From Candidatus Dadabacteria bacterium (GTDB taxonomy: Bacteria; Desulfobacterota_D; UBA1144; Nemesobacterales; CSP1-2): 23,598 nucleotides of DNA. Positions 3,041 to 23,598 of the stretch are shown here, one piece after another. A program made the position numbers and the translations under genes. Positions within the stretch are counted from its first letter, which is position 1, and each line of letters starts with the position of its first letter. The DNA is taken from NCBI GenBank assembly GCA_040289575.1, contig PSLL01000010.1, positions 27,298 to 50,895 of the forward strand, in the 5' to 3' direction. The notes beneath the pieces were generated by a model, which saw only the letters and a program-made list of their open reading frames with translations, searched no databases and was not told the DNA's origin.

Positions 3041-3331
3041 ATGGCTAAGAGAATTCGTTCTGGTGTAAAAAAGCACCGTCAGAGCCTAAAGAGGAGGGCG
3101 AGGAATATGCATATACGCTCTTTTCTCAAGACGGTTATAAAGGAGTTAAACGCTGCAATAGAGGCTAAAGACATAACAAAATCTCAAGAGGCTTTAAAAT
3201 CTACGGTATCGGCGCTTAGCAGGGCTGCATCAAAAGGGGTAATTAATAAAAGAACCGTTTCCAGAAATGTCGCGAGGCTTTCAAAGAAGGTGCATAATCT
3301 ATCAAAACAAACGGCACAGCCTGTCGTGTGA
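3041..3331 (+). CDS. rpsT: 30S ribosomal protein S20
   Basis: 96 aa basic protein: IRSGVKKHRQSLKRRARN...KT..K...AASKGVI.K....R..ARL; convergent with holA as is typical. Confidence 0.93.
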   Translation: MAKRIRSGVKKHRQSLKRRARNMHIRSFLKTVIKELNAAIEAKDITKSQEALKSTVSALSRAASKGVINKRTVSRNVARLSKKVHNLSKQTAQPVV

Positions 3332-5695: not shown

Positions 5696-7108
5696 TTATG
5701 AATCCTGACCCTGCTCTGATCCTCTGGAGGCGGCTTTTGAAAAGCCTATGAGAAACGCAAAATACAGGGCATTTGATGGGACGTGCAGATTAAAGTCGGC
5801 AAGGCTGTGGATGAGCAGGGATACGATTCCCGACAGGGTCCCAAGAGACAGGAAGAATCTGAGGTGTTTTCCTTCATGAGATAGCTGGCCGAGTGTTTTC
5901 AGCAAGGAAAATATAAATAGACAAAGCACAATGAGAATTGAGAGAAATCCCAAGAGGCCAGTCTCAACTATAAGCTGAAGGTAGTCGTTGTGTGCGTGTA
6001 TGTATACAAGGGCCTGCTCCATGTATCTTTTGTATAGCGGATAGACGTAGCCGAATGTTCCAAGGCCGGTTCCAAAAATAGGAAAGTCTCTTATGGTCGC
6101 TAGCGAATCTTTCCACACAAGAGTTCTTCCTGGAGCGTCTGATTCAATTTGAAGGAATCTTTCAAATACGGAATGAAGCCCTATCCAGAGCCCGTAAATG
6201 AGAGCAACGGCTAGGACAAAAAGAATCATCATCGCCTTCTCTGTCCTATCCCTTTTAAAGCTGTGATAAGTCAGGTAGAAGAAAAGGAGGGATAGAAGAG
6301 CACTGAATATACCCATCCTTGATTGCGAAAGAAACAAGGCAAGGAGCGATATACCCAGAAGAAAGAGGAGCAAAATCTGTTTTTGAAATCTATCCGATGA
6401 AACCAGATTCTTAAAAAATGACCTATGCCTTCCGTGTCGCCTGCCCAGAAACAGCGCGTAGCCTAGAACAAGGGGAAGAGACATTTCAAGAAACCCCGCA
6501 AAATGATTTCGGTTGAGAAATGTTCCCCTGCCCGATCCCAGCCCCGCTGCTGCAGCGGTATTGATTGTAGTTATATATTGGTATATCCCATAAGCAGCTT
6601 CAATGAGAGATACTGTAAATACCGGAATGAGGAGAAACTTTATTTGGTTCTCTTTCCTAAACCTTCTTGATACGACAAATCCAAATGCGATATACGAGAA
6701 TAAAAGCAGTGTTTCTCTCCATGTGCCGTGTGGATAAAGGCTTATTGTGAATGCGCTATTTTCTCTGTTGAATCCGATGATTGAGAGAACCGATTGGTTC
6801 TTTTCCCAGATCTCTAGACTCTTTCCAGACACGATTCCTAGAATGGACTCTGGAAGCGGGATGATCTGAAATAAACATATAGATAAAAATACGAGAAGCG
6901 GCAGGCTCTTTGTGTTCAGTTTAATCTCCCTTTCCTCAGCGAGGGAATACAAGAGCCAGAAGAAGAGGAGTAGAAGGCATTGGATTTGGACTAGGAACAA
7001 TGCTAAGGGGCTTGGACTCCCGCTTCTTATAAGGAAAGGTGAGAAAAAGAGGAGAGAAAAGGTAAAAAAATAGATCAACTTATCCAGTATGGCACGGGCT
7101 ATAGTCAT
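5696..7108 (-). CDS. O-antigen ligase family (Wzy_C / WaaL-like) membrane protein
   Basis: 470 aa, many TM segments; GTFLNRNHFAGFL, SQSRMG, R...W..S....D.PIFGTGLGTF, HAHNDYLQ...ETGLLG, HSLADFNLH. Confidence 0.9.
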   Translation of the reverse strand: MTIARAILDKLIYFFTFSLLFFSPFLIRSGSPSPLALFLVQIQCLLLLFFWLLYSLAEEREIKLNTKSLPLLVFLSICLFQIIPLPESILGIVSGKSLEIWEKNQSVLSIIGFNRENSAFTISLYPHGTWRETLLLFSYIAFGFVVSRRFRKENQIKFLLIPVFTVSLIEAAYGIYQYITTINTAAAAGLGSGRGTFLNRNHFAGFLEMSLPLVLGYALFLGRRHGRHRSFFKNLVSSDRFQKQILLLFLLGISLLALFLSQSRMGIFSALLSLLFFYLTYHSFKRDRTEKAMMILFVLAVALIYGLWIGLHSVFERFLQIESDAPGRTLVWKDSLATIRDFPIFGTGLGTFGYVYPLYKRYMEQALVYIHAHNDYLQLIVETGLLGFLSILIVLCLFIFSLLKTLGQLSHEGKHLRFFLSLGTLSGIVSLLIHSLADFNLHVPSNALYFAFLIGFSKAASRGSEQGQDS

Positions 7109-8225: not shown

Positions 8226-8788
8226 ATGACTACTGAGTTATGGCCAGTGTTGCCCCTGGAAGGGTGGAAAGACACCTATGCGACGCTTCATATGTGGACT
8301 CAGATCGTCGGAAAGATTCGGCTCGCACAGACGCCATGGGTCAATCACTCGTGGCATGTGACGCTTATTCCGTATGGCATGAGGACATTCCAGATTGACT
8401 TTGATTTCATTGACTATCGGCTCATAATCCAGACAAGCGATGGCGCGGTGCAAACAATTGTGCTTCGACCAATTTCCGTTGCTGATTTTTACGGTGAGGT
8501 CATGATGGCGTTGCGGGATTTAGATCTCGGTGTGAGCATTCATACAAGGCCGAATGAGGTGACAGAGCCAATTCCAAAGGAGTTTCGCTCGCGATTCATA
8601 GGCAAGTGCAGCCCTGTGCATTTTTTCTGGAGCGGCTTTGATCTTGCAGTCACACGCTTCTCAGGTCGTCCGGCGCCAGAGCATCCGGGTGGTGTGCCGA
8701 ACCTGCCGGATTCCGTAACGCGCGAGGCATACTCTCATACTGTGGAAACTGGAACAGGGCCGCATTGGAGCGAAAAACAGTAAGTTAA
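8226..8788 (+). pseudogene. DUF5996 (Ava_C0101-like) family gene with internal deletions and a frameshifted tail
   Basis: WKDTYATLHMWTQIVGKIRL...PWVNHSWHVTL, SPVHFFWSGFDLAVTRFSGR, TREAYSH. The ORF is 185 aa versus about 300 aa as I recall for the family. The family-like C-terminus GNWNRAALER lies in another frame just after REAYSH. Confidence 0.8.
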
Positions 8789-8830
8789 TTCTATTACACG
8801 AGGCTGTTTTGGTTTTACCTTTGGGTATGG

Positions 8831-9496
8831 TTACCACCTTCCAAAACAGGTTATTTTACCGTTTGTGAGGCTCGCGGGATCTCGCCTGCAAACGGGAAGT
8901 TTAGGCTCAGAAATTATCACATCATCGGGAGCAACACATGGAGAGGTATCGCCGCAGAACACATTACCATTGATAGAGAACCTATTAATTACTATAGTGT
9001 CCTTCCCGGGGAACTCGGTTCTGCATGCCCCCATAGGATCGATCTTAAATGTTTTTCCCGTGCACGGATTGATGGTGCTGAATAAGGTAGGATTATCCGA
9101 TTCACATTCATTAAGTCGTATTGTTGTTGTGACCCCAGGAGATACCTCAACGGTCAATTGTGTAAATGCAGGGCTACAACTGATTAATCCCGGTAGGACG
9201 GGGTTTGTTACCGGTATGGGTTCTTGTCCCAAATCCGTTGAGAGGGTTGCACCGGTTACGTTTAAAATAAATATATTGTCTCCTATTTTTAGTGTTCCCC
9301 TTCCCACCACAAATACAGTACCGCTATATTTTTTTGATACACCAATTGCTGCATATATACCCGTAGTTTTATTCTTGCCTTTAGCAATGGCAGAAAAATC
9401 GGCGGTTGGTTGAGCTGAGGAAGGTGTATCCCTTAGTGTGCAAAAAGAGCCTAATACAAAGCCAAATATACACAAAGCAATAAATAGTTTCTTCAT
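8831..9496 (-). CDS. Hypothetical secreted Cys-rich protein
   Basis: 221 aa; MKK plus hydrophobic signal, probable cleavage at SSA|QP; eight Cys in the mature part; GAGG RBS. No family recognised. Confidence 0.8.
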   Translation of the reverse strand: MKKLFIALCIFGFVLGSFCTLRDTPSSAQPTADFSAIAKGKNKTTGIYAAIGVSKKYSGTVFVVGRGTLKIGDNIFILNVTGATLSTDLGQEPIPVTNPVLPGLISCSPAFTQLTVEVSPGVTTTIRLNECESDNPTLFSTINPCTGKTFKIDPMGACRTEFPGKDTIVINRFSINGNVFCGDTSPCVAPDDVIISEPKLPVCRRDPASLTNGKITCFGRW

Positions 9497-10262: not shown

Positions 10263-11150
10263 ATGCATCCTTTGTATAACGAAAGGTTCTTTGATACTAA
10301 GGACTCTAAGGAAGCGGTCACGCTTGGAATGCTGCCGCCTTTGACCATCCGTCCATCGCGTGGTTGGGTATCACTCAGGCTCAAGGACCTGTGGGAATAC
10401 CGTGAGCTTCTATATTTCCTAGTCTGGCGCGATATGAAGGTGCGTTACAAACAAACAGTACTCGGTGTTACATGGGCGATTCTGCAGCCTTTTATGACAA
10501 TGGTTGTATTCAGCATCTTCTTTGGAAAGTTGGCTAAGGTACCATCTGACGGGATTCCGTATCCGATTTTTGTATACTGTGCGCTTCTCCCGTGGCAGCT
10601 CTTTGCCAATGCATTAACTGCATCTGGAAACAGTCTGGTGTCGAACCAGGGACTCATAACAAAGGTTTATTTTCCACGCCTGGTCATTCCCATATCGGTG
10701 GTACTGGCTGGGTTGGTCGATTTTGGTATATCACTCTTGGTTTTGCTTGGTATGATGTTCTACTACGGCATTGTTCCAACAACGGCTGTTCTGGTGCTGC
10801 CATTTATCATACTATTCGCTATTGCTACGGCTCTGGCTGTGGGCTTATGGTTGTCAGCCCTAAATGTAAAGTACCGCGACGTGCACTACACGATACCTTT
10901 TCTAACACAGTTCTGGCTCTTCGTAACACCCGTTGCCTACCCCAGCAGCCTGGTGCCGGAGGCATGGCGTATTTTATACGGGTTAAACCCTATGGCTGGG
11001 GTGGTGGAAGGGTTCCGCTGGGCCTTGTTGGGCAAAGCCGGCGGGGTAGGGATGCTAATGACTGTTTCGGTACTGGCAGTCACTATACTCCTTTTCGGGG
11101 GCCTTCTGTACTTTCGGCGTATGGAGAGAACATTTGCAGATATAGTGTAA
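10263..11150 (+). CDS. wzm: ABC-2 polysaccharide exporter permease (Wzm/RfbA-like)
   Basis: LWEYRELLYFLVWRDMKVRYKQT.LG..WAILQP, LITKVYFPR, LNVKYRDV, LNPMAGVVEGFR, FADIV. Alternative ATG at 10329. Confidence 0.95.
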   Translation: MHPLYNERFFDTKDSKEAVTLGMLPPLTIRPSRGWVSLRLKDLWEYRELLYFLVWRDMKVRYKQTVLGVTWAILQPFMTMVVFSIFFGKLAKVPSDGIPYPIFVYCALLPWQLFANALTASGNSLVSNQGLITKVYFPRLVIPISVVLAGLVDFGISLLVLLGMMFYYGIVPTTAVLVLPFIILFAIATALAVGLWLSALNVKYRDVHYTIPFLTQFWLFVTPVAYPSSLVPEAWRILYGLNPMAGVVEGFRWALLGKAGGVGMLMTVSVLAVTILLFGGLLYFRRMERTFADIV

Positions 11151-11153
11151 GCT

Positions 11154-12473
11154 ATGGGCGACGTTGCTATTTGTGTTGAAAATCTGGGTAAGCAATACCG
11201 CATCGGACAGCGCAAGCGCTATAATGCCTTGCGCGACGCATTATCTGAGGCGGTGTATACCCCTTTCCGATGGCTTTCACAATTCGTAAATGGTCAATCA
11301 GCAATCAGTAATGAACAATCCAATGGCATCATCTGGGCATTGAAAGACGTCTCATTCGAGGTTAAGCGTGGTGAGGTTGTCGGCATCATCGGGCCCAACG
11401 GCGCTGGTAAGAGCACATTACTCAAAATCCTCGCTCGTATCACCGAGCCAACGGAGGGTTACGCCGACATTTATGGCAAAGTAGGTTCACTCCTTGAAGT
11501 CGGCATCGGTTTCCACTCTGAGCTAACCGGAAAGGAAAACATATATCTAAGTGGTGCCATACTCGGTATGAAGAAGGCAGAGATTGACCGCAGGTTCGAT
11601 GAGATCGTAGCCTTCTCTGAAGTTGAGAGGTTCCTGGATACACCGGTAAAGCACTATTCTAGCGGCATGTATGTACGCCTGGCCTTTGCTGTAGCGGCTC
11701 ACCTAGAGCCGGAGATTCTGATTGTGGATGAAGTCTTGGCAGTGGGGGATGCCGCGTTCCAGAAGAAGTGTCTGGGGAAAATGGGTGATGTTGCTAGGGA
11801 AGGACGGACGGTGTTGTTCGTATCACACAGTATGGCTGCTATTACTCGTCTTTGTGAAAGAGCAATTCTCATTAAAGAGGGCAGAATCTTAGAAGACGGA
11901 CCATCTCATCGAGTTGTCAGCTTGTACTTAAGTTCAGGAATCGGTACGACTGCCGAGCGAATATGGCCCGACCGTAATAAGTCGCCACAAGGCGAAATCG
12001 TTCGTTTATATGCTGTACGTGTGAGGTCGGAGGAGGGGCATATAATCGACGCAGTTGATATCAGACAACCTCTCAGAGTTGAGATGGAATATGAAGTTCT
12101 CAAGGCGGGTTATGCGCTTATGCCGCATTTTGCCTTTTACAATGAAGAAGGTGTGCTTGCCTTTGTATCTCACGATCTCGACCCAGCTTGGCGGCGGCGA
12201 CCTCGTCCGAAGGGTTTATATGTGAGCACAGTATGGATTCCCGGCAATCTACTCTCTGAGGGGATGTTTTTTGTCCATGCTGGTCTCGATACGATTGACC
12301 CTGTTATCCCTCAATTTGATGAATGCGACGCAGTCGCTTTTCAGGTTATCGATAACTTTGACGGAGATTCAGCACGCGCTGATTATGCCGGAGATATGGG
12401 AGGTATTGTGAGACCAATGTTAAAATGGACTACCCAATCACGCTTAAATGAATTCAAAGTTGGCGATCTTTAG
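11154..12473 (+). CDS. wzt: ABC polysaccharide exporter ATPase with C-terminal Wzt_C-like domain
   Basis: Walker A GPNGAGKST, signature YSSGM, Walker B ILIVDE, VLAVGD..FQKKC, VSH; about 170-aa beta-rich C-terminal extension. Confidence 0.95.
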   Translation: MGDVAICVENLGKQYRIGQRKRYNALRDALSEAVYTPFRWLSQFVNGQSAISNEQSNGIIWALKDVSFEVKRGEVVGIIGPNGAGKSTLLKILARITEPTEGYADIYGKVGSLLEVGIGFHSELTGKENIYLSGAILGMKKAEIDRRFDEIVAFSEVERFLDTPVKHYSSGMYVRLAFAVAAHLEPEILIVDEVLAVGDAAFQKKCLGKMGDVAREGRTVLFVSHSMAAITRLCERAILIKEGRILEDGPSHRVVSLYLSSGIGTTAERIWPDRNKSPQGEIVRLYAVRVRSEEGHIIDAVDIRQPLRVEMEYEVLKAGYALMPHFAFYNEEGVLAFVSHDLDPAWRRRPRPKGLYVSTVWIPGNLLSEGMFFVHAGLDTIDPVIPQFDECDAVAFQVIDNFDGDSARADYAGDMGGIVRPMLKWTTQSRLNEFKVGDL

Positions 12474-12520
12474 TTATAGAAGCTGAGTCTCGAATGCCAT
12501 TTTAGCTTTGGTGAAATAAG

Positions 12521-13507
12521 ATGAGCATCAAGCCGCTGGTATCTGCAATCATTATTTTTCTGAATGAGGAGAAGTTCATACAGGAAGCCATAGAGAGTGT
12601 ATTCGCACAGACTTATGACAACTGGGAACTTTTGCTTGTAGATGATGGCTCAACAGACAGTAGCACTGCAGTTGCTAGACGTTATGCGGAGAAATACCCT
12701 GAAAAAGTGCGTTATCTGGAGCATGATGGCCATCGAAATCTTGGCATGAGTGCTTCACGCAATCTGGGTGTCTATAATGCCAAGGGCGAGTACATATCCT
12801 TCTTGGATGGTGATGATGTCTGGTTACCCCACAAATTAGAACAACAGGTGACAATTCTGGAATCACAACCTGAAGCTGCCATGGTTTATGGACCTCTTCA
12901 GGTGTGGTACAGTTGGTCGGGTAACCCTGAGTATAATAAGCATGACCATCTCATGGGTGTAAATCGTAATGGTGTGCACCCGTACAGTAATACGCTGGTT
13001 AAGCCACCGGCGTTGCTTAGCCTCTTCCTACGGGACGAATTTTTCATACCTGGTGGTATAATGGTACGACGTAATGTATTAGAAAGTGTAGGTGGATATG
13101 AAGAGATTTTTCGTGGTATGTATGAGGATACTGTTGTTCTCGTCAAGATATGCCTTACTTCAGCAGTGTTTGTGTCTAGTGAGTGCTGGTATAGATATAG
13201 GAGTCATCGGGATTCTTACACTGACATTTCATGGGAAAAGGGGCAATTTTACGCTGATCGCTTATTTTATTTGAACTGGGTAGAGGAGTATTTATCAAAA
13301 CAGGGGGTAAAGGATCCCGAGGTATGGAAATCTCTTCGAAAGGCCAAATGGCCCTATCGTCATCCGACTCTAAATCGTTTGTCAGAAATTTACCGCCATT
13401 TTTTTAACCCGATCCAGTGGCACTGGCTAATGATTTTTATAGCGAAGCAGACGTTACCTATTTCTCTTAGGCGCTGGCTACGAACGCTATGGCAGGCATT
13501 TACATAA
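12521..13507 (+). CDS. Glycosyltransferase family 2 (paralogue A)
   Basis: LVSAIIIFLNEEKFI.EAIESV, VDDGSTD, SASRN.G, FLDGDD, YED. Confidence 0.93.
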   Translation: MSIKPLVSAIIIFLNEEKFIQEAIESVFAQTYDNWELLLVDDGSTDSSTAVARRYAEKYPEKVRYLEHDGHRNLGMSASRNLGVYNAKGEYISFLDGDDVWLPHKLEQQVTILESQPEAAMVYGPLQVWYSWSGNPEYNKHDHLMGVNRNGVHPYSNTLVKPPALLSLFLRDEFFIPGGIMVRRNVLESVGGYEEIFRGMYEDTVVLVKICLTSAVFVSSECWYRYRSHRDSYTDISWEKGQFYADRLFYLNWVEEYLSKQGVKDPEVWKSLRKAKWPYRHPTLNRLSEIYRHFFNPIQWHWLMIFIAKQTLPISLRRWLRTLWQAFT

Positions 13508-13533
13508 GGGTATTTAAGATCTGAAGATTGTGC

Positions 13534-14487
13534 ATGTTTGCTAGAGGCTATAGAGAACCCCTCGTCTCTGTTATTGTTAGCTTCTTGAATGCCGAAAGGT
13601 TCATACAAGAAACCATCGAGAGTGTGCTTGCCCAGACTTACGAATACTGGGAACTATTCCTAGTGGATGATGGATCAGATGATAGAAGCACATCAATTGC
13701 TCGGCGGTATGCTGAACGGTATCCCGGAAAGATTCGCTATCTCGAACACGAGGGTCATCAGAATCACGGGGTATGTGTTTCACGCAATCTGGGTATTCGC
13801 CATTCTAAAGGTGAGTATATCGCTATTTTGGACGCCGATGATGTCTGGCTATCACATAAACTGGAACGACAAGTGGAAATCCTAGGTTCACACCCCGAAG
13901 TCGCTATGGTCTATGGAGCCAGTGAATATTGGAACAGCTGGACAGGTAAACCCGAAGATGCTAAACGAGACTTTGTACCAGAACTTGGTGTTCAGACCAA
14001 TACCGTGTTCAATCCGCCAAAGTTGGCTATTCTCTGCTACCCATTAGGAGAAGGTACCGCTCCTTGCCCCTCTAATATACTGTTGCGCCGTGAGATTGTG
14101 GAAGATATAGGAGGATTTGAAGAAGGCTTTCGGGGTATGTACCAATTATACGAAGATCAAGCATTTTTGATCAAGGTGTATCTCAATGCGCCTGTGTTTG
14201 CAGCTGGCGAGTGTTGGGATCGATATAGGATACATCCATATTCCTGTATGGCGCGGACGAGTCAATTCCACGATGAGATTAGGCTGTTTTTTCTAAAATG
14301 GCTGGAGGCGTATCTGACTGAACGAGAGATTAGGGACATCAATATCTGGAAGGCACTGCGGAGGGCCTTCTGGCCATACCAGCATCCGCACTTGTACAGG
14401 TTGTCAAAACTTCCCGGCAATCTCATTGAACAGATAAAAAAACCACTGAAGCGAGTAGTGCGGAGGACATTGCTCACCGACTCTTAG
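13534..14487 (+). CDS. Glycosyltransferase family 2 (paralogue B)
   Basis: LVSVIVSFLNAERFI, VDDGSDD, LDADD, YEDQ. ATG 13534 preferred over TTG 13528. Confidence 0.92.
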   Translation: MFARGYREPLVSVIVSFLNAERFIQETIESVLAQTYEYWELFLVDDGSDDRSTSIARRYAERYPGKIRYLEHEGHQNHGVCVSRNLGIRHSKGEYIAILDADDVWLSHKLERQVEILGSHPEVAMVYGASEYWNSWTGKPEDAKRDFVPELGVQTNTVFNPPKLAILCYPLGEGTAPCPSNILLRREIVEDIGGFEEGFRGMYQLYEDQAFLIKVYLNAPVFAAGECWDRYRIHPYSCMARTSQFHDEIRLFFLKWLEAYLTEREIRDINIWKALRRAFWPYQHPHLYRLSKLPGNLIEQIKKPLKRVVRRTLLTDS

Positions 14488-14534
14488 ATGTTGGTATCGC
14501 GAAATTATTCTGTGGATAGAGACTATCTTGACTG

Positions 14535-15299
14535 ATGGGATACCACAAATTAGCAACACGTACACAGCGCTGGTTGGAAAATCAATGGCGCTGGTTGAGA
14601 AGTCGATGGCAGGCATATCGCTACCCGATTGGAACAGTGAATTTTGGTAGCCTAAGACGGGTAACACCGATCAGCCGTGAGTTTGGATTTGATCGTGGTT
14701 TGCCTGTTGACCGATACTATATCGAGAATTTTCTTGCCCAATATGCCGATGATATTCGAGGACGTGTGCTAGAGGTTGGAGACGATTCATATACCAGACG
14801 ATTTGGCGGAGGCAGAGTAAATACCAGAGATGTACTGCATATTTCTAAAGGGAATCTGATTGCCACATTCGTCGGTGACCTGACAAAAGCCTACCATATA
14901 CCATCGGATACATTCGACTGTTTAATACTGACGCAGACGCTCCAATTTATATACGATGTGCGAGCCGCTATCGGGACAGTCCACCGTATTTTGAAACCAG
15001 GGGGGGTTGTGCTAGCCACATTTTCAGGCATCAGCCAGATTGCGAGCGACGAGTGGGGTGATTATCAGTGTTGGAGTTTCACAAGCCTATCATCGCGACG
15101 GCTGTTTGAGGAATTTTTCCCAGCAGACAATGTTAAGGTCGAAGCCTACGGAAATGTGCTGTCGGCAATCGCGTTTCTGCAGGGGCTTGCGGCTAGGGAA
15201 TTTTGTCAGGAAGAGCTCGATTTCCATGACCCTGCTTATGAGGTCTTAATCACGGTGAGGGCTGTTAAGCCGTTGTTAATTTATGATCAAAGAAGGTAA
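14535..15299 (+). CDS. Class I SAM-dependent methyltransferase
   Basis: FGFDRG.PVDRYYIE.FL, motif I VLEVGD, FDCLILTQTL, RILKPGG. Confidence 0.9.
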   Translation: MGYHKLATRTQRWLENQWRWLRSRWQAYRYPIGTVNFGSLRRVTPISREFGFDRGLPVDRYYIENFLAQYADDIRGRVLEVGDDSYTRRFGGGRVNTRDVLHISKGNLIATFVGDLTKAYHIPSDTFDCLILTQTLQFIYDVRAAIGTVHRILKPGGVVLATFSGISQIASDEWGDYQCWSFTSLSSRRLFEEFFPADNVKVEAYGNVLSAIAFLQGLAAREFCQEELDFHDPAYEVLITVRAVKPLLIYDQRR

Positions 15300-15318
15300 C
15301 TGATAAAATTCCAGGGTT

Positions 15319-17070
15319 ATGAATGATCTCCGATTGATGCAGGACATTAGTAGAGGCAAATCTGTGAGATTTAGTGTAATTATTCCAACTTACCAAAGGC
15401 GAGAGCTTGTATTGGCATTGGTGCATTCTCTGGTAAGACAGGAATTTGACGGCCACTTCGAGGTCATTGTGGTGGTGGACGGCTCAATAGATGGCACAGC
15501 CCAAGCCCTCCGAGAAATCAGCGTCCCCTTTCCCATGATGGTGATTGAACAACAGAACAAGGGTAGGGCTACGGCTCTGAACCGTGGTGCTGATGTTGCT
15601 CATGGAGAAATTTTACTCTTTCTGGACGACGACATGGAAGCCCATCCACGTCTCTTGGCCGAGCACAACCGGTCTCACCAAGAGGGCGCTGATATTGTCC
15701 TTGGGCACATTCCCTTGCATCCCGAATCGCCTTCAAACTTCCTGGGTGCCGCGGTCGGCATTTGGTCTGAGGAAAGGGTTAAGCGGTTGTCGTCTCCAAA
15801 TGCGACTCCGAACATTCACGATATGATTACCGGACAGGCTTCCCTATCACTTGAGATCTTTCGTAAGCTCGGTGGGTTCGACACAAATTTCAATCGCAAT
15901 GGCTCGTTTGGGAACGAAGACCTCGATTTTTGCTACCGTCTCAAACTCAAAGGATATCATATCGTCTTCAACCCAAATGCCATTAGCTGGCAGAAGTACG
16001 TAGTTACCCCGAGTGATTACCTGAGCCAGTGGCGACAGGCAGGGCGTGCGGATGTAGCTCTTGTACGAAAACACCCCGATCTCATCAATGACATCTTTGC
16101 GGCTCACCCTGCCGAGTCCTTAATCGAGCGGGTCTTGTGGCGTCTGACATCTTGGCTCTTGCTTGCTCTAGTAAATGTGGGGATTCAAAACGCTATCACA
16201 ACGAGGTTGTTTTTCCGGGGTCGGGACTTGGAATACTGGCGTGGAGTACGTGAGGCTGGAGGGATACCAAAACCTCAGTCTCTAAGGATCTTAGCCTACC
16301 ACTCAATATCAGATCTATCGGGATGTCACATACTCGAGCAATACGGAGTGCCAGAAGGATTGTTTCTCCGGCAGATAGATACACTTCAAAATTCCGGCTA
16401 TAGATTTATAACTACAGATGAGTTTTTACGTTTTTTAAATGGAAATGGTGGCCTGCCGCGAAAACCTCTATTGCTAACATTCGATGATTGTTTTGAGGAT
16501 ATCTTAAAGGTCGCGTTGCCTATACTTAAGAAGCGGGGTATACCGGCGGTTGCTTTCGCCGTAAGTGGACGTTTGGGTGGAGTGAATGACTGGGATAAAA
16601 TAATTGGGGCTAAGCAAATTCGATTACTCGATGCAAACGGCCTCAAGGAATTAGCAGCCGGTGGGGTCGAGATTGGTTCTCATTCTAAGACCCACCGGCC
16701 CCTCGCCCAGGTTCCGACTGAGGAATTGGCCAAGGAAGTGGGAGGTTCACTGGCAGACCTACAAGCAATTGGGCTACCACGACCGCGGCTTTTCGCCTAT
16801 CCCCATGGCAAAAGTGACGATAGGGTGGAAAAAGCTGTACAGGAAGCTGGTATACAGGCTGCGTTTACAGTAACAGCCGATTGCGTGATGCCATTTCAAA
16901 ACCCTTATCGGATTCCAAGAATCGAGATTCTGAGGTCTGACGTTGGATGGAAGCTCCTTTGTAAGGTCGCCTTGGCCGGGCGGTCGATTATCCCTTCAAT
17001 TGGAATACGTTCACTTCTAAAGCGGTTGCGCCTGAAACTAGCAGTTGCAGTTAGAGAGTACCAAAGCTAA
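15319..17070 (+). CDS. GT2 glycosyltransferase fused to a C-terminal CE4 polysaccharide deacetylase
   Basis: N-terminal SVIIPTY.R, VDGSID, FLDDD, EDLD; C-terminal ILAYH, LTFDDC, GSHSKTH, FAYPHG, IPRI. Confidence 0.92.
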   Translation: MNDLRLMQDISRGKSVRFSVIIPTYQRRELVLALVHSLVRQEFDGHFEVIVVVDGSIDGTAQALREISVPFPMMVIEQQNKGRATALNRGADVAHGEILLFLDDDMEAHPRLLAEHNRSHQEGADIVLGHIPLHPESPSNFLGAAVGIWSEERVKRLSSPNATPNIHDMITGQASLSLEIFRKLGGFDTNFNRNGSFGNEDLDFCYRLKLKGYHIVFNPNAISWQKYVVTPSDYLSQWRQAGRADVALVRKHPDLINDIFAAHPAESLIERVLWRLTSWLLLALVNVGIQNAITTRLFFRGRDLEYWRGVREAGGIPKPQSLRILAYHSISDLSGCHILEQYGVPEGLFLRQIDTLQNSGYRFITTDEFLRFLNGNGGLPRKPLLLTFDDCFEDILKVALPILKKRGIPAVAFAVSGRLGGVNDWDKIIGAKQIRLLDANGLKELAAGGVEIGSHSKTHRPLAQVPTEELAKEVGGSLADLQAIGLPRPRLFAYPHGKSDDRVEKAVQEAGIQAAFTVTADCVMPFQNPYRIPRIEILRSDVGWKLLCKVALAGRSIIPSIGIRSLLKRLRLKLAVAVREYQS

Positions 17071-17108
17071 GAACGCTTCTAAACAGAAGGTATATATAAA
17101 TAGGTTTT

Positions 17109-18797
17109 ATGCAAGCGATGTCAAGATTCAAAGCAAAAATCGATAACATTTGCTTTTCTGTGATTGTACCTGCTTACAATGCTTCAGATACACTGAATGA
17201 GACCATTGCAAGCTTAATTGCTCAGACCTTCCCGAGATGGGAAGCAATCATAGTTGATGACGGCTCAATAGACGACACTGCAGCTATCGCTTACAGTTGG
17301 GCTCAAAGGGATAACCGATTCTGCGTGATTCGTCAGAGTAATGGCGGAGAGAGCGCCGCACGAAATACAGGCATTCGGGCTGCAAGAAACGACTGGTTGG
17401 TTTTCCTCGATTCAGACGATTGGCTTGCTCCGGAGTACCTTGAACGTATGGCAAAACAGATCACAGCGGACCCTAAGCTCGACGCTGTGGTATGCGGTTG
17501 CGTTCGAGTAACCCCATCCGGTCAGTACGGTCCCGCATCGGTCTATACACAATCACTACTAAGTAATCTCTTTCCGGAGTTTGTTAAGGATTGTCCTTTT
17601 GCTCTCCTTAACTGCATAGTGCGGCGCTCACTGGTACAGGAAATTGGAGAATTCGACACGGGTCTTGTTACCTGTGCGGATTGGGACTTTTGGCAACGTG
17701 TTGCGCGCACCGGCGCCCGATTCGGTAACATACCTGAGGTGTTGGCATACTACCGAATGCGCCCGGGCTCCGCCTCTTCAAATGCCGAACGCATTCTTGT
17801 CGATGGACTGACTATTATCCGACGTGGACATGACCGAGATCCCAGGGTTCAATTTCCGCACCCTGACTATGCCGACGGTCTGCCCTCTAATAGTCTATCC
17901 GAGGAATTCTACCGGCACTCCTTGTGGCCTGTCAGTCATAAAATCGTCCGAGGCGAGGATGCCAGACCACTGCTACAATTCCTTGAGGAGGTGCGTGCTC
18001 CAAACCTCAATCCCCTCGAAGTTGCCGCATGCCTTTTCCAATACATACCCCTCGCTGCCAATCGCACATCTAAAGATTGGCCAATACTATGGCCAACCTT
18101 AGTGGTATGGCTCAATGCCTATCTGGTGGCACTTGAAGCCCAGTCTCAGGCAGTGGGTCTAGCTAAACAGACTATCCTTCACCTCGAGCGATTGATCGTC
18201 AATATAGCGGATCTCAAACAGCCAATTACTATCGGAACTACACACGGGGTCCGCATAAATATTGACCTTCCCATCGAGGATGTAAAGGTAGAGGAGGGTG
18301 TTGAGCAGCTAATTTGTCCGGTTGAATCCATGGGGCAGTATATAGGCTCGATTCGTCTGTCTGCCTTTCAAAGGGTCGTATCCAAAAAGGCTATTGCGGA
18401 GGCCATTGAGAATGATCTCGCCTTGCCACTTATGTTGGTTTATTTCCGAATCAAGCTGCCGCGCGATAACACGTTGTTGCATATACGAATTCGCCGATTG
18501 ACACAAGAGAATCAAACCTTGCGTATTCTCTTAGAATTGGCTGGTCTTCTCTCACCCTTGCTACGCTGGCAGTTGCGGGATGGACTGCTGCGCGAGCCGC
18601 TGTTACTAATGCGTTTCCTTTGGCTTACGTTGAGAATGCGGCCTGTGCACATCGCGATTAAAATAATCAGAACCGACCCTGAGTCGCGTCGAAAGAGGTT
18701 TAAAGAGTTCCTTATAAATATGGGGCAGAGGCTTATACGTGAGCAAAAACTAGTGACTATAAAATCTGATGAGGAGATACCGCGACTGCTTTTTTGA
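17109..18797 (+). CDS. GT2 glycosyltransferase with long C-terminal extension
   Basis: SVIVPAYN, VDDGSID, SAARN.G, FLDSDD, DWDFW; about 300 aa of unassigned C-terminal sequence. Confidence 0.9.
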   Translation: MQAMSRFKAKIDNICFSVIVPAYNASDTLNETIASLIAQTFPRWEAIIVDDGSIDDTAAIAYSWAQRDNRFCVIRQSNGGESAARNTGIRAARNDWLVFLDSDDWLAPEYLERMAKQITADPKLDAVVCGCVRVTPSGQYGPASVYTQSLLSNLFPEFVKDCPFALLNCIVRRSLVQEIGEFDTGLVTCADWDFWQRVARTGARFGNIPEVLAYYRMRPGSASSNAERILVDGLTIIRRGHDRDPRVQFPHPDYADGLPSNSLSEEFYRHSLWPVSHKIVRGEDARPLLQFLEEVRAPNLNPLEVAACLFQYIPLAANRTSKDWPILWPTLVVWLNAYLVALEAQSQAVGLAKQTILHLERLIVNIADLKQPITIGTTHGVRINIDLPIEDVKVEEGVEQLICPVESMGQYIGSIRLSAFQRVVSKKAIAEAIENDLALPLMLVYFRIKLPRDNTLLHIRIRRLTQENQTLRILLELAGLLSPLLRWQLRDGLLREPLLLMRFLWLTLRMRPVHIAIKIIRTDPESRRKRFKEFLINMGQRLIREQKLVTIKSDEEIPRLLF

Positions 18798-18822
18798 GGT
18801 TCCCTTTTATGAAGGGTACCTT
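18796..18822. other. Intergenic stem-loop without U-tract
   Basis: GAGGTTCCCTTT-TAT-GAAGGGTACCTT, a 12-position stem with one mismatch and two G-U pairs. Confidence 0.4.
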
Positions 18823-18881
18823 AAACAACACCTTATAACTGCCAATTCATAATCAATATTAGAACTGTGGAGACTAATGAT

Positions 18882-19916
18882 ATGAAGATACCAGGGGTCA
18901 ACCGCTTTCGCAGAGTCGTACGGCGGGTTAAGAGACGATTTGCGCTGGATGGACTTATCCTGATGTACCACAGTGTGAATAATTGGGGATCAGACCCGTG
19001 GTCTTTATGTGTGACGCCGGAATACTTCGCTGAGCAACTAGAGGTGTTACAAAAGTATTGTTTCTCCATGCCGTTGCATCAATTAGTTCAAAAGTGTCGA
19101 GGCGGGAAGATCCCGCGCCGCGCAGTGACCGTTACGTTTGATGATGGCTACGCAGATAACCTACATAATGCAAAACCATTACTGGAACGCTACGGAATAC
19201 CCGCGACGGTTTTTATAACAACTGGGTATATTGGGCGGGCCCGCGAATTCTGGTGGGATGAATTGGAAAGACTCCTCTTACAACCTGGCACACTACCGCA
19301 AACGCTTTGTCTAACTATTAGGGGTAATGCCCATAGGTGGGAGTTGGGCGAATCGGCCTATTACAGCGAAGATGACTACATGCGCCATCATGACCTGAAA
19401 CCATGGGAGGGAAAGGAAGGTTCTCGGCATTTTCTTTATTGTGCACTCTGGCAACTGCTGCAGCCTTTACGGCTGGACGAGCAACAAGAAGTGTTGGATG
19501 AAATAACGGTATGGGCTGGAACTCAACCTGTAGCCCGTCCGACTCATCGTCCCCTTATGGATGAGGAGCTGTCAATACTTCATAAGTGTGGGCTAATCGA
19601 GATTGGCGCACATACAATAACTCATCCTTGTCTTTCTGCACATCCTGTTGCTTTTCAGCAAGATGAAATCCAGCGGAATAAAGCCCAATTAGAGGATTTG
19701 CTGGGGTGTCCGGTAAGTAGTTTTGCATATCCGTACGGGGATTACACACCGGAGACGATCGGCCTCGTTCAAGAGGCGGGATTTGCATGTGCCTGCACTA
19801 CCGTTGAAGAAACCGTCTGGCGACATACTGACTGTTTTCAGCTACCTCGTGTTCAGGTGGAGGGTTGGAATGGAGATGAATTTGAGAAGCGGTTACTGAG
19901 GTGGTTTCATGGTTGA
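18882..19916 (+). CDS. CE4 polysaccharide deacetylase
   Basis: ILMYH, VTFDDGYAD, FWWDEL insertion, GAHTITH, FAYPYG, LPR. ATG 18882 with GGAG RBS preferred over GTG 18867. Confidence 0.93.
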   Translation: MKIPGVNRFRRVVRRVKRRFALDGLILMYHSVNNWGSDPWSLCVTPEYFAEQLEVLQKYCFSMPLHQLVQKCRGGKIPRRAVTVTFDDGYADNLHNAKPLLERYGIPATVFITTGYIGRAREFWWDELERLLLQPGTLPQTLCLTIRGNAHRWELGESAYYSEDDYMRHHDLKPWEGKEGSRHFLYCALWQLLQPLRLDEQQEVLDEITVWAGTQPVARPTHRPLMDEELSILHKCGLIEIGAHTITHPCLSAHPVAFQQDEIQRNKAQLEDLLGCPVSSFAYPYGDYTPETIGLVQEAGFACACTTVEETVWRHTDCFQLPRVQVEGWNGDEFEKRLLRWFHG

Positions 19917-20826
19917 TGCGATTATTAGACAGCCGCTGGTCTCAGTCATCACCATATTTCTAAACGCCGGGAAGTTTATACAGGAGGCTATCGAGAGCGT
20001 CTTCGCCCAGACCTATGGCAAGTGGGAACTTTTGCTTGTAGATGACGGTTCTACAGACGGTAGCACTGAAATTGCGTTAGGGTATGCTAAGCAATATCCC
20101 AAGAGAGTTCGTTATCTTGAACATAATGGTCATCGAAATCGGGGCATGAGCGCTTCGCGCAATTTGGGCATCAGTGATGCTGGGGGGGAATACATCGCCT
20201 TCTTAGATGCCGATGACGTTTGGCTACCGTACAAACTGGAACAGCAGGTGGCGATTCTAGATTCTTATCCTATGGCCGGTATGGTTTTTGGACCTACTCA
20301 ATATTGGTACAGCTGGACCGGTAATTCAGAAGATAGCCAAGGCGACTCGGTGCGGGAAATCGGGGTTCTGCCCAATATGCTTTACCAACCGCCCCAATTG
20401 CTCACGCTTTTATTGCAAAACAGGGCGAATGCACCTGCCACTTGTAGTGTTCTAATAAGGCGCAGGGTGTTTGATGAGGTAGGTGGATTTGAAGATGTCT
20501 TTAGGGGGTTATTTGAGGACAGGGCATTTTTTGCTAAGGTGTATCTTAAAGTGCCGGTGTATGTATCCGGCGAGTGTTGGGATAGGTATCGTCAGCACCC
20601 GGATTCATGCTGCTCGGTTGCTGAGAGAACCGGGCAACTCCAACTCTCGCAGCCAAACTCGGAACACTTAAATTTTTTAAACTGGGTGACGGAGTATTTA
20701 TCCAAACAGGAAATTCGGGACGAGAGGGTCTGGCAGGCTCTTCAAAAGGGATTTTGGCCATATAACCATCCCATTCTATACCGACTTAGCCGAATCAAGA
20801 AGCGATTGGAATATATTTGGAGATAA
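19909..20826 (+). CDS. Glycosyltransferase family 2 (paralogue C)
   Basis: LVSVITIFLNAGKFI.EAIESV, VDDGSTD, FLDADD, FED; 8-bp overlap with the upstream gene. Confidence 0.93.
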   Translation: MVDAIIRQPLVSVITIFLNAGKFIQEAIESVFAQTYGKWELLLVDDGSTDGSTEIALGYAKQYPKRVRYLEHNGHRNRGMSASRNLGISDAGGEYIAFLDADDVWLPYKLEQQVAILDSYPMAGMVFGPTQYWYSWTGNSEDSQGDSVREIGVLPNMLYQPPQLLTLLLQNRANAPATCSVLIRRRVFDEVGGFEDVFRGLFEDRAFFAKVYLKVPVYVSGECWDRYRQHPDSCCSVAERTGQLQLSQPNSEHLNFLNWVTEYLSKQEIRDERVWQALQKGFWPYNHPILYRLSRIKKRLEYIWR

Positions 20827-20836
20827 GTTAATCTCT

Positions 20837-22150
20837 ATGAATGCCTTTAAGCCCTGGAAAATTCTGAATATCGATTTAGGTAAGGGCTTGCCTTCGCTGC
20901 AAATTGATGAGGGCTATCAGGGGCTATATATTGTCTTTTGGTGGTATAGCATTCCGCTTGGTCATCGGGAAATCCCATCTGCTCAATTGCCTATAACTTC
21001 TGAGCAGCTTGCAAATCTAGCGCTTCAAACCATTACTCCGGTAGTCAGCGATCGTCTATTGAAGCAAGGCTTGGGAGGCCATTCAGCCGAGTTATATCAA
21101 AATTCAAGAATTATAAACTCGGGGCAACGAGGTCTTATGATGTTCGATCAATCTCTCTCTAAAGTGCATGAGTATTTGTCAAGGCCTGTGGATGAATCCG
21201 TTTCTGTTATTATATGTACACGGGATAGGTCAGAACAATTGGCAAAGTGCCTACGATCGGTTCAAGATTTATCTCAACATCCCGAAGAGATATTGGTTGT
21301 TGATAACGCACCCAGATCAGACTCCACACGCCAATTAGTCGCGAAGATGCCAAGAATCAGATATATATTGGAACCTCGACCTGGTTTGGGTGTAGCTAGA
21401 AATACAGGTATTCGCAAGAGCACAGGCGACATCGTCGCCTTTATAGATGATGATGTAATGGTTCACCCCGATTGGATCACCCGATTATTACAAGGCTTTA
21501 ATGATCCGAAGGTAATGGCTGTTACCGGGCTTGTTCTGCCAATGGAATTGGAAACGGAAGCCCAGTTTATTTTTGAAAAATACTGGGGCTTTAATCGAGG
21601 ATATATAGCTTTGACCTTCGACAGTCGTTTCTTTGAGGATCATAAGACTTGGGGTGTGCCCGTTTGGCGCATTGGTGCCGGAGCTAATATGGCATTTCGG
21701 CGCAAGGTTTTTGAGTTGGTAGGAAGTTTTGACGAGCGGTTGGGTGTAGGGGCTGCCGGATGTAGTGAGGATTCTGAATTATGGTATCGGATGATTGCTG
21801 AGGGCTGGACTTGTGTCTATGAACCGGCTGCTGTAGTTTATCACAACCATCGTCGGGACACAGATAGCTTAGAGCAGCAGGTGTACTATTATATGCGGGG
21901 GCATGTAGCCGCACTTTTAATTCAGTTTGAAAAGTACAGACACCTTGGTAATCTGCTACGTCTGTTTATTGTTTTACCTGCCTTCTATGTTAAATCCTTT
22001 TTAACTGGGACTTTAAAAGGTTTTGGGCAAAGGCGAGGTACGCTGCCGGTAGAGATTTCGGGCTATTTGTCGGGAATTAAGTTTTACTTAAACAATAGAT
22101 CTTACACGGGTGGGTCTAAAGTAAGGGACATTATGGGTATCGGCTCGTAA
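20837..22150 (+). CDS. GT2 glycosyltransferase with N-terminal extension
   Basis: About 120-aa N-terminal region, then SVIICTRDR, VVDNAP, FIDDD, GAGANMAFRR, EDSE. Confidence 0.92.
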   Translation: MNAFKPWKILNIDLGKGLPSLQIDEGYQGLYIVFWWYSIPLGHREIPSAQLPITSEQLANLALQTITPVVSDRLLKQGLGGHSAELYQNSRIINSGQRGLMMFDQSLSKVHEYLSRPVDESVSVIICTRDRSEQLAKCLRSVQDLSQHPEEILVVDNAPRSDSTRQLVAKMPRIRYILEPRPGLGVARNTGIRKSTGDIVAFIDDDVMVHPDWITRLLQGFNDPKVMAVTGLVLPMELETEAQFIFEKYWGFNRGYIALTFDSRFFEDHKTWGVPVWRIGAGANMAFRRKVFELVGSFDERLGVGAAGCSEDSELWYRMIAEGWTCVYEPAAVVYHNHRRDTDSLEQQVYYYMRGHVAALLIQFEKYRHLGNLLRLFIVLPAFYVKSFLTGTLKGFGQRRGTLPVEISGYLSGIKFYLNNRSYTGGSKVRDIMGIGS

Positions 22151-22219
22151 GGTATGGGGATGTTGAGGCTGCGGGATATGGCAACAGTATGAAAGATTTT
22201 TGTATTTAGGTGATTGTCT

Positions 22220-23137
22220 ATGAGAATTTCTTTAATAATCTGCACCAGAGATAGAGCGGATCTCTTAAAGAGCTGTCTTCAGTCTCTCTCTAAGAGCAGT
22301 GTTGAATTCCATGAGATCATAGTTGTAGATCAGAGCTCAAATATTGCTGCTACCATATCTGTTATAGAAGAGTTATTACCTGTTATACGGAACCTGAGGT
22401 ACATACCCACGGAAACTAGGGGTCTATCTAAGGCAAGAAATGTGGGTATTAAGATTGCTACTGGCGATATAGTAGCCTTTACTGACGATGACTGTATTGT
22501 AACTAGTGATTGGGCTGAAGCCATTATCCATGAATTCAAAAGGGATAAAGATACTATGGCTGTTTATGGGAAGGTACCCCCTGTTTTTGATGGAGCCCGA
22601 ACCAGAAAGATGCTGGCTATTCGCTTGAAAGATAATCGTCAGGAATACAAAAGATTAGTCAATCCCTGGGAGTTTCAATCCGGCAATAATATGGCTCTTA
22701 GAAGAGGGGTTTTTAAAGAGATAGGATATTTTGATGAATTGCTGGGACCAGGGGCCGAATTGAGGAATTGTGATGATGCCGACATGGCCTATAGACTGCT
22801 TCGTTGTGGACTGAAAGTTGTCTATACACCCGAGGCCGTTATATATCACAGACTGTGGAGGAAAGATGTGGAAGCCTTGCGTGTGGAGAAGGATTATAAT
22901 ATCGGTGCGGGTGCGCTATTGATTAAACACCTGCGTTATGGAGATGTGTATATACTCAGACTGATTATTGAGAGACTCCTCATTCGAGGGATAGGAAATA
23001 TTATGTTGGCAGCCCTGACCAGAAGTAGATATAGGTTACTCAGGGGCTATTGCTATCTTTTTGTTACCCACGGGATGTGGAAGGGATTAATGAAGCCGCT
23101 GTCTTTCAAATACAGGGTATTTGAAAAGACAGATTAG
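22220..23137 (+). CDS. Glycosyltransferase family 2
   Basis: SLIICTRDR, VVDQS, GLSKARN.G, FTDDD, GNNMA. ATG 22220 with AGGTGA RBS preferred over TTG 22214. Confidence 0.92.
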   Translation: MRISLIICTRDRADLLKSCLQSLSKSSVEFHEIIVVDQSSNIAATISVIEELLPVIRNLRYIPTETRGLSKARNVGIKIATGDIVAFTDDDCIVTSDWAEAIIHEFKRDKDTMAVYGKVPPVFDGARTRKMLAIRLKDNRQEYKRLVNPWEFQSGNNMALRRGVFKEIGYFDELLGPGAELRNCDDADMAYRLLRCGLKVVYTPEAVIYHRLWRKDVEALRVEKDYNIGAGALLIKHLRYGDVYILRLIIERLLIRGIGNIMLAALTRSRYRLLRGYCYLFVTHGMWKGLMKPLSFKYRVFEKTD

Positions 23138-23215
23138 TGAAAAATAGATTAACCCAAATAGTGCATTAAGAGAATGGCAATGATTCAGAATATATCCAAA
23201 ATTTAGAAATCTTAT

Positions 23216-23243
23216 TTGACAATAGATTATTCTTGTGTAATAA
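23216..23243 (+). promoter_or_regulatory. Putative sigma70 promoter upstream of the riboswitch
   Basis: Perfect TTGACA (23216-23221); weak -10 TAATAA at 16-bp spacing in an AT-rich context. Confidence 0.45.
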
Positions 23244-23302
23244 ATAGAAAAGCTTTGTGCATAAAAGTATCTGAATCACACAATTACAAAATGGTTATCT
23301 CT

Positions 23303-23395
23303 AACCGACAAAGGCAAACCATCCGAAAGGATGAGGCGCAAAACCTTCGGCCTAAAGATTGCGCGAGCAATCTATGGCGGCTGAGTTACCGAAGT
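23303..23395 (+). ncRNA. c-di-GMP-I (GEMM) riboswitch aptamer
   Basis: GGCAAAC-CATCC-GAAA-GGATG-AGGCGCAAAAC-...-GGCCTAA-AGATTGC GCGA GCAATCT-ATGGCGGCTGAGTTACCG. It shows P2 with a GAAA tetraloop, the CGCAAA junction, P3 with a CCTAA/ATGG receptor-like element and a 3' GTTACCG, closely paralleling the Vibrio Vc2 aptamer. Confidence 0.95.
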
Positions 23396-23498
23396 AGGGC
23401 AAGGAGCTTTCTTATTTTATCCCCTTAGCTTCTAATCATCTCAGCTAATGGTTTGCCTCCATCTAGAAGTAACAAAAACTAGTAGGAGGTGACCCATT

Positions 23499-23598
23499 AT
23501 GAGATTTGAGATAAGGGAGATCGTAATTACCTTAGCAATATTTTTGGGGGGAATCACATACGCTTACTCTACTACCTACTATGTCAGTTCTTCGGGGG
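23499..23598 (+). CDS. 5' end of a secreted protein, possibly right-handed beta-helix (pectin-lyase-like); truncated by the window
   Basis: AGGAGG RBS at 23484-23489; MRFEIREIVITLAIFLGGITYAYS|TTYYVSSSG, i.e. a signal peptide followed by a TYYVS..G start motif. Confidence 0.75.
   Translation, partial: MRFEIREIVITLAIFLGGITYAYSTTYYVSSSG

Follow-up and report, generated by a model that had tools for sequence, protein, structure and literature searches.

Vc2 of Vibrio cholerae is the type example of the c-di-GMP-I riboswitch family, RF01051 in Rfam. Translational repression by masking of the ribosome-binding site (RBS) in a c-di-GMP riboswitch was reportedly described by Inuzuka et al. in 2018, and the RNA that they studied is said to be Vc2. 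Translational control by a c-di-GMP-I riboswitch is already known, and the locus analysed here adds one more riboswitch. Regarding ligand recognition, the excerpt of PMC6140456 used here states that G20 of Vc2 contacts the G-alpha of the ligand, that C92 is the Watson-Crick partner of G-beta, and that an A replaces G20 in the cGAMP sensors. Another described system is Cd1 of Clostridioides difficile, a c-di-GMP-I OFF switch; according to the excerpt of PMC9262584 used here, its OFF structure and its ligand-bound aptamer can coexist, its competing ligand-free structure requires the loss of binding competence, and its antiterminator is transient, refolding in time into the terminator.

Using cmscan against Rfam on the window (the whole stretch of 23,598 nucleotides of Candidatus Dadabacteria DNA analysed here), we found RF01051 at 23303-23393 of the + strand with 66.2 bits (E = 3.5e-11), well above its gathering score (35 bits, used as the cut-off). 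The match spans model positions 1-87 of 87, i.e. the full length, and is the sole Rfam match over gathering score in the whole window; the c-di-GMP riboswitch announced from the letters alone by an earlier note on this DNA is thereby confirmed. The two hairpins that mark RF01051, one capped by a GNRA tetraloop and one carrying the receptor motifs, are both present. The elements of the aptamer are as follows.

23303..23393, + strand: c-di-GMP-I (GEMM-I) aptamer, from the RF01051 match.
23306..23307, + strand: CG, putative 5' strand of P1, a 2-bp closing helix with C23390 and G23391, from the RF03167 structure line.
23313, + strand: G, equivalent of Vc2 G20, unpaired, model position 11 (the mapping of Vc2 numbers is our own).
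23319..23334, + strand: P2 hairpin CCAUCC-GAAA-GGAUGA, from the cmscan alignment and pair list.
23340, + strand: A, equivalent of Vc2 A47, the first A after the GC pair (CGCAAA in the window, as in the RF01051 consensus).
23342..23387, + strand: P3 hairpin with the CUAA and UAUG tetraloop-receptor motifs, from the cmscan alignment and pair list.
23389, + strand: C, equivalent of Vc2 C92, model position 83, unpaired just before the 3' strand of P1.

P2 consists of five Watson-Crick pairs and a C·A pair (core CAUCC-GAAA-GGAUG), the GC/GC pair joins 23314-15 with 23338-39 in the cmscan alignment, and P3, the 3' strand of which is GGCUGAG (23379-85), bears CUAA and UAUG motifs that align with conserved consensus letters of RF01051. 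The alignment flags four non-standard pairs; a register shifted by eye re-pairs P3, and this re-registered pairing was applied in the constrained and growing-transcript folds presented below. P1 was mapped to the window from the RF03167 structure line, taken as printed for two other loci (L080 and L103), and this mapping would pair C23306 with G23391 and G23307 with C23390, leaving C23389 unpaired just before them. Like Vc2 and the RF01051 consensus, the window has a GAAA-capped P2, a P3 with receptor motifs, G/A/C at the three contacts and a location in a 5' leader. Unlike them, it has a sequence-specific expression platform, with a masking strand that targets the 5' core of the aptamer (from G20 to the P2 5' strand) and the P3 3' strand, and it reads GGC instead of GAC at 23335-23337 (model positions 33-35; G for A at position 34). 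This GGC variant is common, as it occurs at no fewer than 120 loci across many phyla among the matches listed in a genome scan, in which the aptamer pattern, its P2 stem left as N, returned at least 120 loci and, among those listed, 123 pattern instances. Several of the GGC-bearing aptamers score higher with RF03167 than with RF01051 despite an A at the variant-defining position.

The three contact positions, G23313, A23340 and C23389, read G/A/C in the alignment, which is the ordinary c-di-GMP type. The first and the last had been named earlier as the G20 and C92 equivalents, and both align with the unpaired positions expected of them; A23340 is what we take to be Vc2 position A47 (the number A47 itself is presumed), and the transfer of Vc2 numbering onto RF01051 model positions is in part our assumption as well. 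Judging from the aptamer assignment and the contact positions, c-di-GMP is well supported as the predicted ligand. GEMM-I relatives of altered specificity exist, as stated in the excerpts of PMC6140456 and PMC7266159 used here, so a preference of the aptamer for 3',3'-cGAMP or another dinucleotide over c-di-GMP has to be weighed; we regard it as highly improbable, since position 20 is G and not A, position 47 is A where the RF03167 consensus has G, position 92 is C, and RF01051 beats the two clan variants, neither of which reaches its gathering score in the window. Variant classes being defined here by model consensus alone, we rejected both cGAMP-sensing GEMM-Ib, which is marked by A at position 20 where the window has G23313, and the c-di-GMP-I-GGC class (RF03167), the consensus of which is CGCGAA at the A47 equivalent where the window has CGCAAA. 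RF03167 remained below its gathering score (59 bits) in the window, and a lower-scoring clan match was set aside; the window's own GGC, at model positions 33-35, lies elsewhere than the A47-equivalent position that defines the GGC class.

Downstream of the aptamer, the leader is organised as follows.

23394..23437, + strand: spacer with weak local hairpins, from the minimum free energy (MFE) and constrained folds.
23438..23466, + strand: switching strand, which is the 5' arm of the Shine-Dalgarno (SD) hairpin, from repeats, folds and duplex energies.
23479..23505, + strand: 3' arm of the sequestering hairpin, with the SD GGAGG (23485-89) and the AUG (23499-23501).
23499..23597, + strand: start of the regulated ORF, 33 codons up to the window end.

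Reading of 23100-23598 reproduced all the strings and coordinates of the earlier note. On the aptamer side, AGGCAAACCAT (23312-23322) and ATGGTTTGCCT (23448-23458) were returned by the inverted-repeat search as an exact 11-nt inverted repeat, and GCTGAG (23380-85) complements CTCAGC (23440-45). On the initiation side, CCTCC (23456-60) complements GGAGG (23485-89), CTAG (23463-66) complements CTAG (23479-82), and TAATGG (23446-51) complements CCATTA (23494-99), the last A of which opens the ATG (23499-23501). Within the switching strand, the 3' strand of P3 finds its complement at 23440-46, and the 5' core of the aptamer, comprising G20, the GC pair, AAA and the 5' strand of P2, finds its own at 23448-58; 23453-60 constitutes the anti-SD, and the duplex energies are −16.3 and −9.6 kcal/mol. 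The segment 23438-23460 pairs either with the aptamer (11 + 7 pairs) or with the SD/AUG region; the dual pairing of one strand, as put forward earlier, was found on both sides, and the two pairings are mutually exclusive in the folds. A second strand of this kind, CUUAGCU (23424-30), is located in the spacer; it is also an inverted repeat (duplex energy −7.4 kcal/mol) and has as its partner either GGCUGAG (23379-85) or UAAGGG (23512-17).

The SD hairpin, seen both as an inverted repeat and in the unconstrained MFE fold, is an interrupted hairpin of 24 bp (23438-23505, −26.3 kcal/mol) made of the helices 23438-43:23500-05, 23446-51:23494-99, 23453-60:23485-92 and 23463-66:23479-82, and it buries both the SD and the AUG. 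Extended to 23420-23520 by the addition of CCCUUA (23422-27):UAAGGG (23512-17), it reaches −36.2 kcal/mol. The unconstrained fold of 23290-23520 (231 nt) has an energy of −74.1 kcal/mol; relative to 200 dinucleotide shuffles, its z is −3.57. When 22800-23598 was scanned for terminators, no intrinsic one was returned on the + strand, in line with what had been said before, and the platform has no U-run; the one match of the scan in this region lies on the − strand, where it corresponds to the P2 hairpin.

Several other repeats are present around these elements. AAUGGUU occurs twice, just upstream of the aptamer (23290-23296) and inside the switching strand (23447-23453); the upstream copy could pair with AACCAU (23317-22) or, alternatively, make a hairpin GGUUA/UAACC (23293-97 / 23302-06), which is seen in folds. 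Imperfect long-range inverted repeats (23250-23266 / 23415-23431, 76%; 23242-54 / 23405-17, 85%) link the region just upstream of the aptamer with the spacer that follows it, and a 23251-56:23403-08 helix encloses the aptamer in some folds. The Rfam scan also gave weak microRNA matches on 23421-23518 (E = 0.42-8.8), which reflect only the long hairpin.

To describe the folding of the leader, we used constrained folds, ensembles and growing transcripts with two assumed 5' ends and 3' ends that included 23460, 23470, 23480, 23492 and 23505 onward. When the aptamer was enforced, the SD hairpin (23438-66:23479-23505) was retained at −65.5 kcal/mol, and the probability of the SD being unpaired was 0.0-0.01 in the in silico ensemble. 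When the 11-bp anti-aptamer helix was enforced (−67.7 kcal/mol), the fold also acquired the 7-bp helix GGCUGAG:CUCAGCU (23379-85 with 23440-46), the aptamer core was broken, P2 was shortened, and the SD was left in a weak hairpin of −6.0 kcal/mol, as compared with −26.3 (−36.2 extended) kcal/mol for the SD hairpin. In transcripts with 3' ends at 23460-23492, the MFE structure holds 9 of the 11 anti-aptamer pairs together with the 7-bp GGCUGAG:CUCAGCU helix, the two anti-aptamer helices being collinear, and the aptamer-enforced fold is 11-20 kcal/mol worse than the MFE. From 23505 on, the MFE structure is the SD hairpin. For the full leader (23251-23560), the free ensemble has an energy of −92.4 kcal/mol and the anti-aptamer-enforced ensemble −86.3 kcal/mol, i.e. 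they are 6.1 kcal/mol apart; the probability of the SD being unpaired is about 0 in the free and aptamer-enforced ensembles and 0.0-0.21 with the anti-aptamer helix enforced, the SD bases then being mostly paired.

In nearest-neighbour folding, the earlier idea that the ligand-free strand invades the aptamer and frees the RBS applies to transcripts ending at 23460-23492 but not to the full leader, the MFE of which is the SD hairpin. Equilibrium folding predicts the OFF state with or without ligand. The switch, if any, would be decided on the nascent RNA, because the strong hairpin is the equilibrium fold both ways, and the ON state would be transient and co-transcriptional rather than an equilibrium state.

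How far the complementarity between aptamer and hairpin arm could be accidental was estimated by shuffling. Of 2000 mononucleotide shuffles, 9 (0.45%) produced an exact complement of at least 11 nt when the 91-nt aptamer was compared with the 176 nt downstream; with the comparison restricted to the 29-nt hairpin arm, 11 of 20000 shuffles (0.055%) did so. The 11-nt aptamer complement exceeds chance. It could be argued that the match between 23448-58 and 23312-22 is nevertheless coincidental, the hairpin being an unrelated translational operator or thermometer beside a riboswitch that acts otherwise: one sequence only is at hand, and, among the matches listed, 5 of 118 other instances have exact complements of at least 11 nt linking the aptamer to its downstream region, not all of them necessarily functional. 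The low shuffle rates, the second independent segment CUCAGCU/GGCUGAG adjoining the first, and the collinearity of both helices in the nascent-transcript MFE make such a coincidence quite unlikely.

A different objection is that the aptamer is real and the SD/AUG hairpin effectively constitutive, so that c-di-GMP acts otherwise (e.g. through Rho-dependent termination or mRNA decay) or translation is simply very low. The full-length MFE structure, which is the SD hairpin with or without the aptamer, agrees with this objection, as do an SD with an unpaired probability of about 0 when the ensemble is free and an anti-aptamer state lying 6.1 kcal/mol higher. Against it stand the rarity of an 11-nt aptamer complement within the hairpin arm (the 11 of 20000 shuffles mentioned above), the role of this complement as the MFE partner of the aptamer in nascent transcripts, the presence of a two-partner strand in relatives as well, and the fact that nearest-neighbour energies leave out tertiary structure and ribosomes. 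We hold a constitutive hairpin to be rather unlikely, though worth keeping in mind.

Concerning the direction of the switch, ligand-bound = OFF would be the only logic that these elements allow in the folding models, because the closed aptamer coexists there with strong SD sequestration; the OFF direction of the earlier note agrees with the aptamer-enforced folds, which keep the SD hairpin. c-di-GMP-I riboswitches of both signs exist, which is a point for the opposite direction, i.e. a translational ON switch in which c-di-GMP exposes the SD. In addition, the excerpt of PMC9262584 used here sets the c-di-GMP-sensing OFF switch Cd1 against a c-GAMP-sensing ON switch, pilM. In the window, however, the switching strand is not engaged by an enforced aptamer and goes into the SD hairpin, up to its extended version, and the analysis of the leader found no element that holds the anti-SD strand in the bound state only. 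An ON switch therefore seems very unlikely to us.

On balance, we favour the view that the window contains a single class I c-di-GMP riboswitch in a 5' leader, probably one that represses translation when its ligand is bound. Its operation may be pictured as follows. c-di-GMP would lock the aptamer during transcription and leave the switching strand free; the free strand would zip with 23479-23505 and then with 23509-23517, so that a hairpin of −26 to −36 kcal/mol would close over the first codons together with the SD and the AUG. If no ligand is bound, invasion of the aptamer by the switching strand would come first, and a hairpin of about −6 kcal/mol, which the 30S subunit could open, would be all that holds the SD. 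The choice would be kinetic and made on the nascent transcript. The SD arm may start pairing at 23459-66 and then drive out the aptamer strand through branch migration, which would perhaps make the ON state very short-lived. c-di-GMP-I aptamers release their ligand very slowly.

Compared with Cd1 as it is described in the excerpt of PMC9262584 used here, the proposed mechanism has in common an OFF structure compatible with the ligand-bound aptamer, a ligand-free alternative that costs binding competence, and the transience of that alternative, which yields to the OFF structure; the growing-transcript folds of the window match this last behaviour. The two differ in that Cd1 ends in an intrinsic terminator, whereas the window platform is without a U-run and buries the SD and the AUG, and in that the Cd1 antiterminator uses the aptamer-stabilising 3' strand, whereas the main target in the window is the 5' core.

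We then looked at the window's relatives in the genome scan. Among the at least 120 loci listed, a megablast search with the whole window gave no match, the best blastn match was 87% over 55 nt (in L004), and none of these loci resembles the window beyond its aptamer; a distant search of the plasmid collection returned no match to 23290-23598. A complement of GGCAAAC was found downstream in 7 of 118 instances among the matches listed; the corresponding counts were 3 of 119 for upstream regions and 2 of 72 for regions far downstream. None of the 7 reaches into P2, and with such counts we rejected the GGCAAAC complement as a general feature. A complement of at least 9 nt to the aptamer 5' segment (−10..+16) is present in 9 of 118 instances among the matches listed, compared with 3, 3, 3 and 6 of 118 permuted pairings and 1 of 113 upstream regions; this complement is modestly enriched among the listed instances. 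Four of the nine are the Bacillota loci L068, L080, L103 and L004, the aptamers of which were confirmed by Rfam; the other five are L078, L020, L015, L111 and L118.

The four Bacillota loci resemble the window in several respects. First, they share with it the aptamer 5' flank ACCGACAAAGGCAAACC. Second, a downstream strand that complements the 5' segment with its G20 equivalent is directly fused to an anti-SD (CCCUC in L068, L080 and L103; UCCUC in L004) opposite the SD. Third, their SD lies in the 3' arm of a hairpin. Fourth, their downstream proteins have N-terminal hydrophobic segments. In the folds of these loci, the anti-aptamer helix competes with the full SD hairpin. They differ from the window in that their complement covers −7..+3, as against +2..+12 in the window (relative to AAAGGC), and spares P2 and P3, and in that the hairpins of L068, L080 and L103 are followed by 5-6 U and look like terminators that also hold the SD. 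Judging from these sequences, the OFF logic apparently recurs in the four loci, in another register. The possibility that the L068-type helix is an ON-type extension of P1 was rejected, as the RF03167 line shows P1 as a short CG/CG only and the long helix pairs the G20 equivalent.

In L078 and L020, such a strand sits inside terminator hairpins. L078 (an Omnitrophota MAG) has two successive terminator-like hairpins at ~90-175 nt past the aptamer start, each of which contains AGUUUGCC, the complement of the aptamer's GGCAAACU. The genes behind six such switches encode a glucosaminidase, two transglutaminase-like proteins, a GH113 glycoside hydrolase, a GGDEF-EAL protein and one protein without family match. 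Some of the loci are rich in c-di-GMP aptamers: L068 has two class II aptamers (1048-1130 and 1872-1954) beside its class I aptamer, L004 has three class I-type aptamers within 6 kb (3194-3299, 5954-6040 and 8761-8850), and L103 has a tandem aptamer pair (119-207 and 294-383).

The regulated ORF of the window begins with a hydrophobic, signal-peptide-like stretch, and its SD lies 9 nt upstream of the AUG. The most likely reading of its 33 N-terminal codons is that the predicted gene product is secreted or membrane-anchored. These 33 amino acids gave no Pfam match, and the two matches of a representative search, long repeat proteins aligned in many short stretches, were judged spurious. An N-terminal motif of the Y[YF]V..G type was found in none of 84 downstream ORFs called from the 123 aptamer instances among the matches listed. 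A possible promoter of this leader was noticed by eye.

23216..23244, + strand: possible promoter, TTGACA (23216-21), a 17-nt spacer with TG and a weak −10 AATAAA.

A consensus scan returned only TTGAAA-18-TAGATT at 23121-23150, the promoter at 23216-23244 not being among its matches.

The regulated gene comes directly after a glycan-synthesis cluster on the same strand (10263-23137, +), which comprises an ABC-2 permease, an ATPase with a weak Wzt_C match, seven GT2 glycosyltransferase genes, a methyltransferase, and deacetylase functions both as a polysaccharide deacetylase domain fused to one GT2 and as a separate deacetylase. The cluster is one for an ABC-transporter-dependent glycan. Upstream of it, a Wzy_C O-antigen-ligase-like gene occupies 5696-7108 (−). 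Two side observations can be added. The ORF at 8226-8783 (185 aa) has a DUF5996 match in two stretches, the best of which covers the first 123 of 296 positions, and it may be truncated or split. At 23100-23132, just before the stop codon that ends the last glycosyltransferase gene, there is an A/U-rich inverted repeat, UGUCUUUCAAAUA ... UAUUUGAAAAGACA, which is without a U-run after it and was not called a terminator.

Bringing these elements together, we tentatively propose, as a more specific version of the favoured repressing riboswitch and with clearly lower confidence, a purely kinetic translational OFF switch. It would be built on a three-part region (23422-30, 23438-46 and 23446-60), each part being complementary to both the aptamer and the initiation region. 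c-di-GMP captured by the nascent aptamer would free a zipper of ~36 bp that covers the first six codons as well as the SD and the AUG, and the ligand-free RNA would offer a brief window for the first ribosome. The gene might then encode a secreted glycan-active or matrix-remodelling enzyme that follows an exopolysaccharide locus and is repressed at high c-di-GMP. If this last part is true, the arrangement would resemble that in Bacillota, where look-alike switches precede secreted hydrolases.

The riboswitch of the window leaves the knowledge of the c-di-GMP-I class unchanged. Its leader is a clean, mutation-ready case of one strand choosing between an aptamer core and a ribosome-binding site. 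If the kinetic proposal is true, the leader would be a model for a translational riboswitch with the OFF fold as its equilibrium state, a question so far studied mostly for transcriptional switches. The riboswitch further suggests repression by c-di-GMP of a predicted secreted protein encoded beside a glycan-synthesis cluster.
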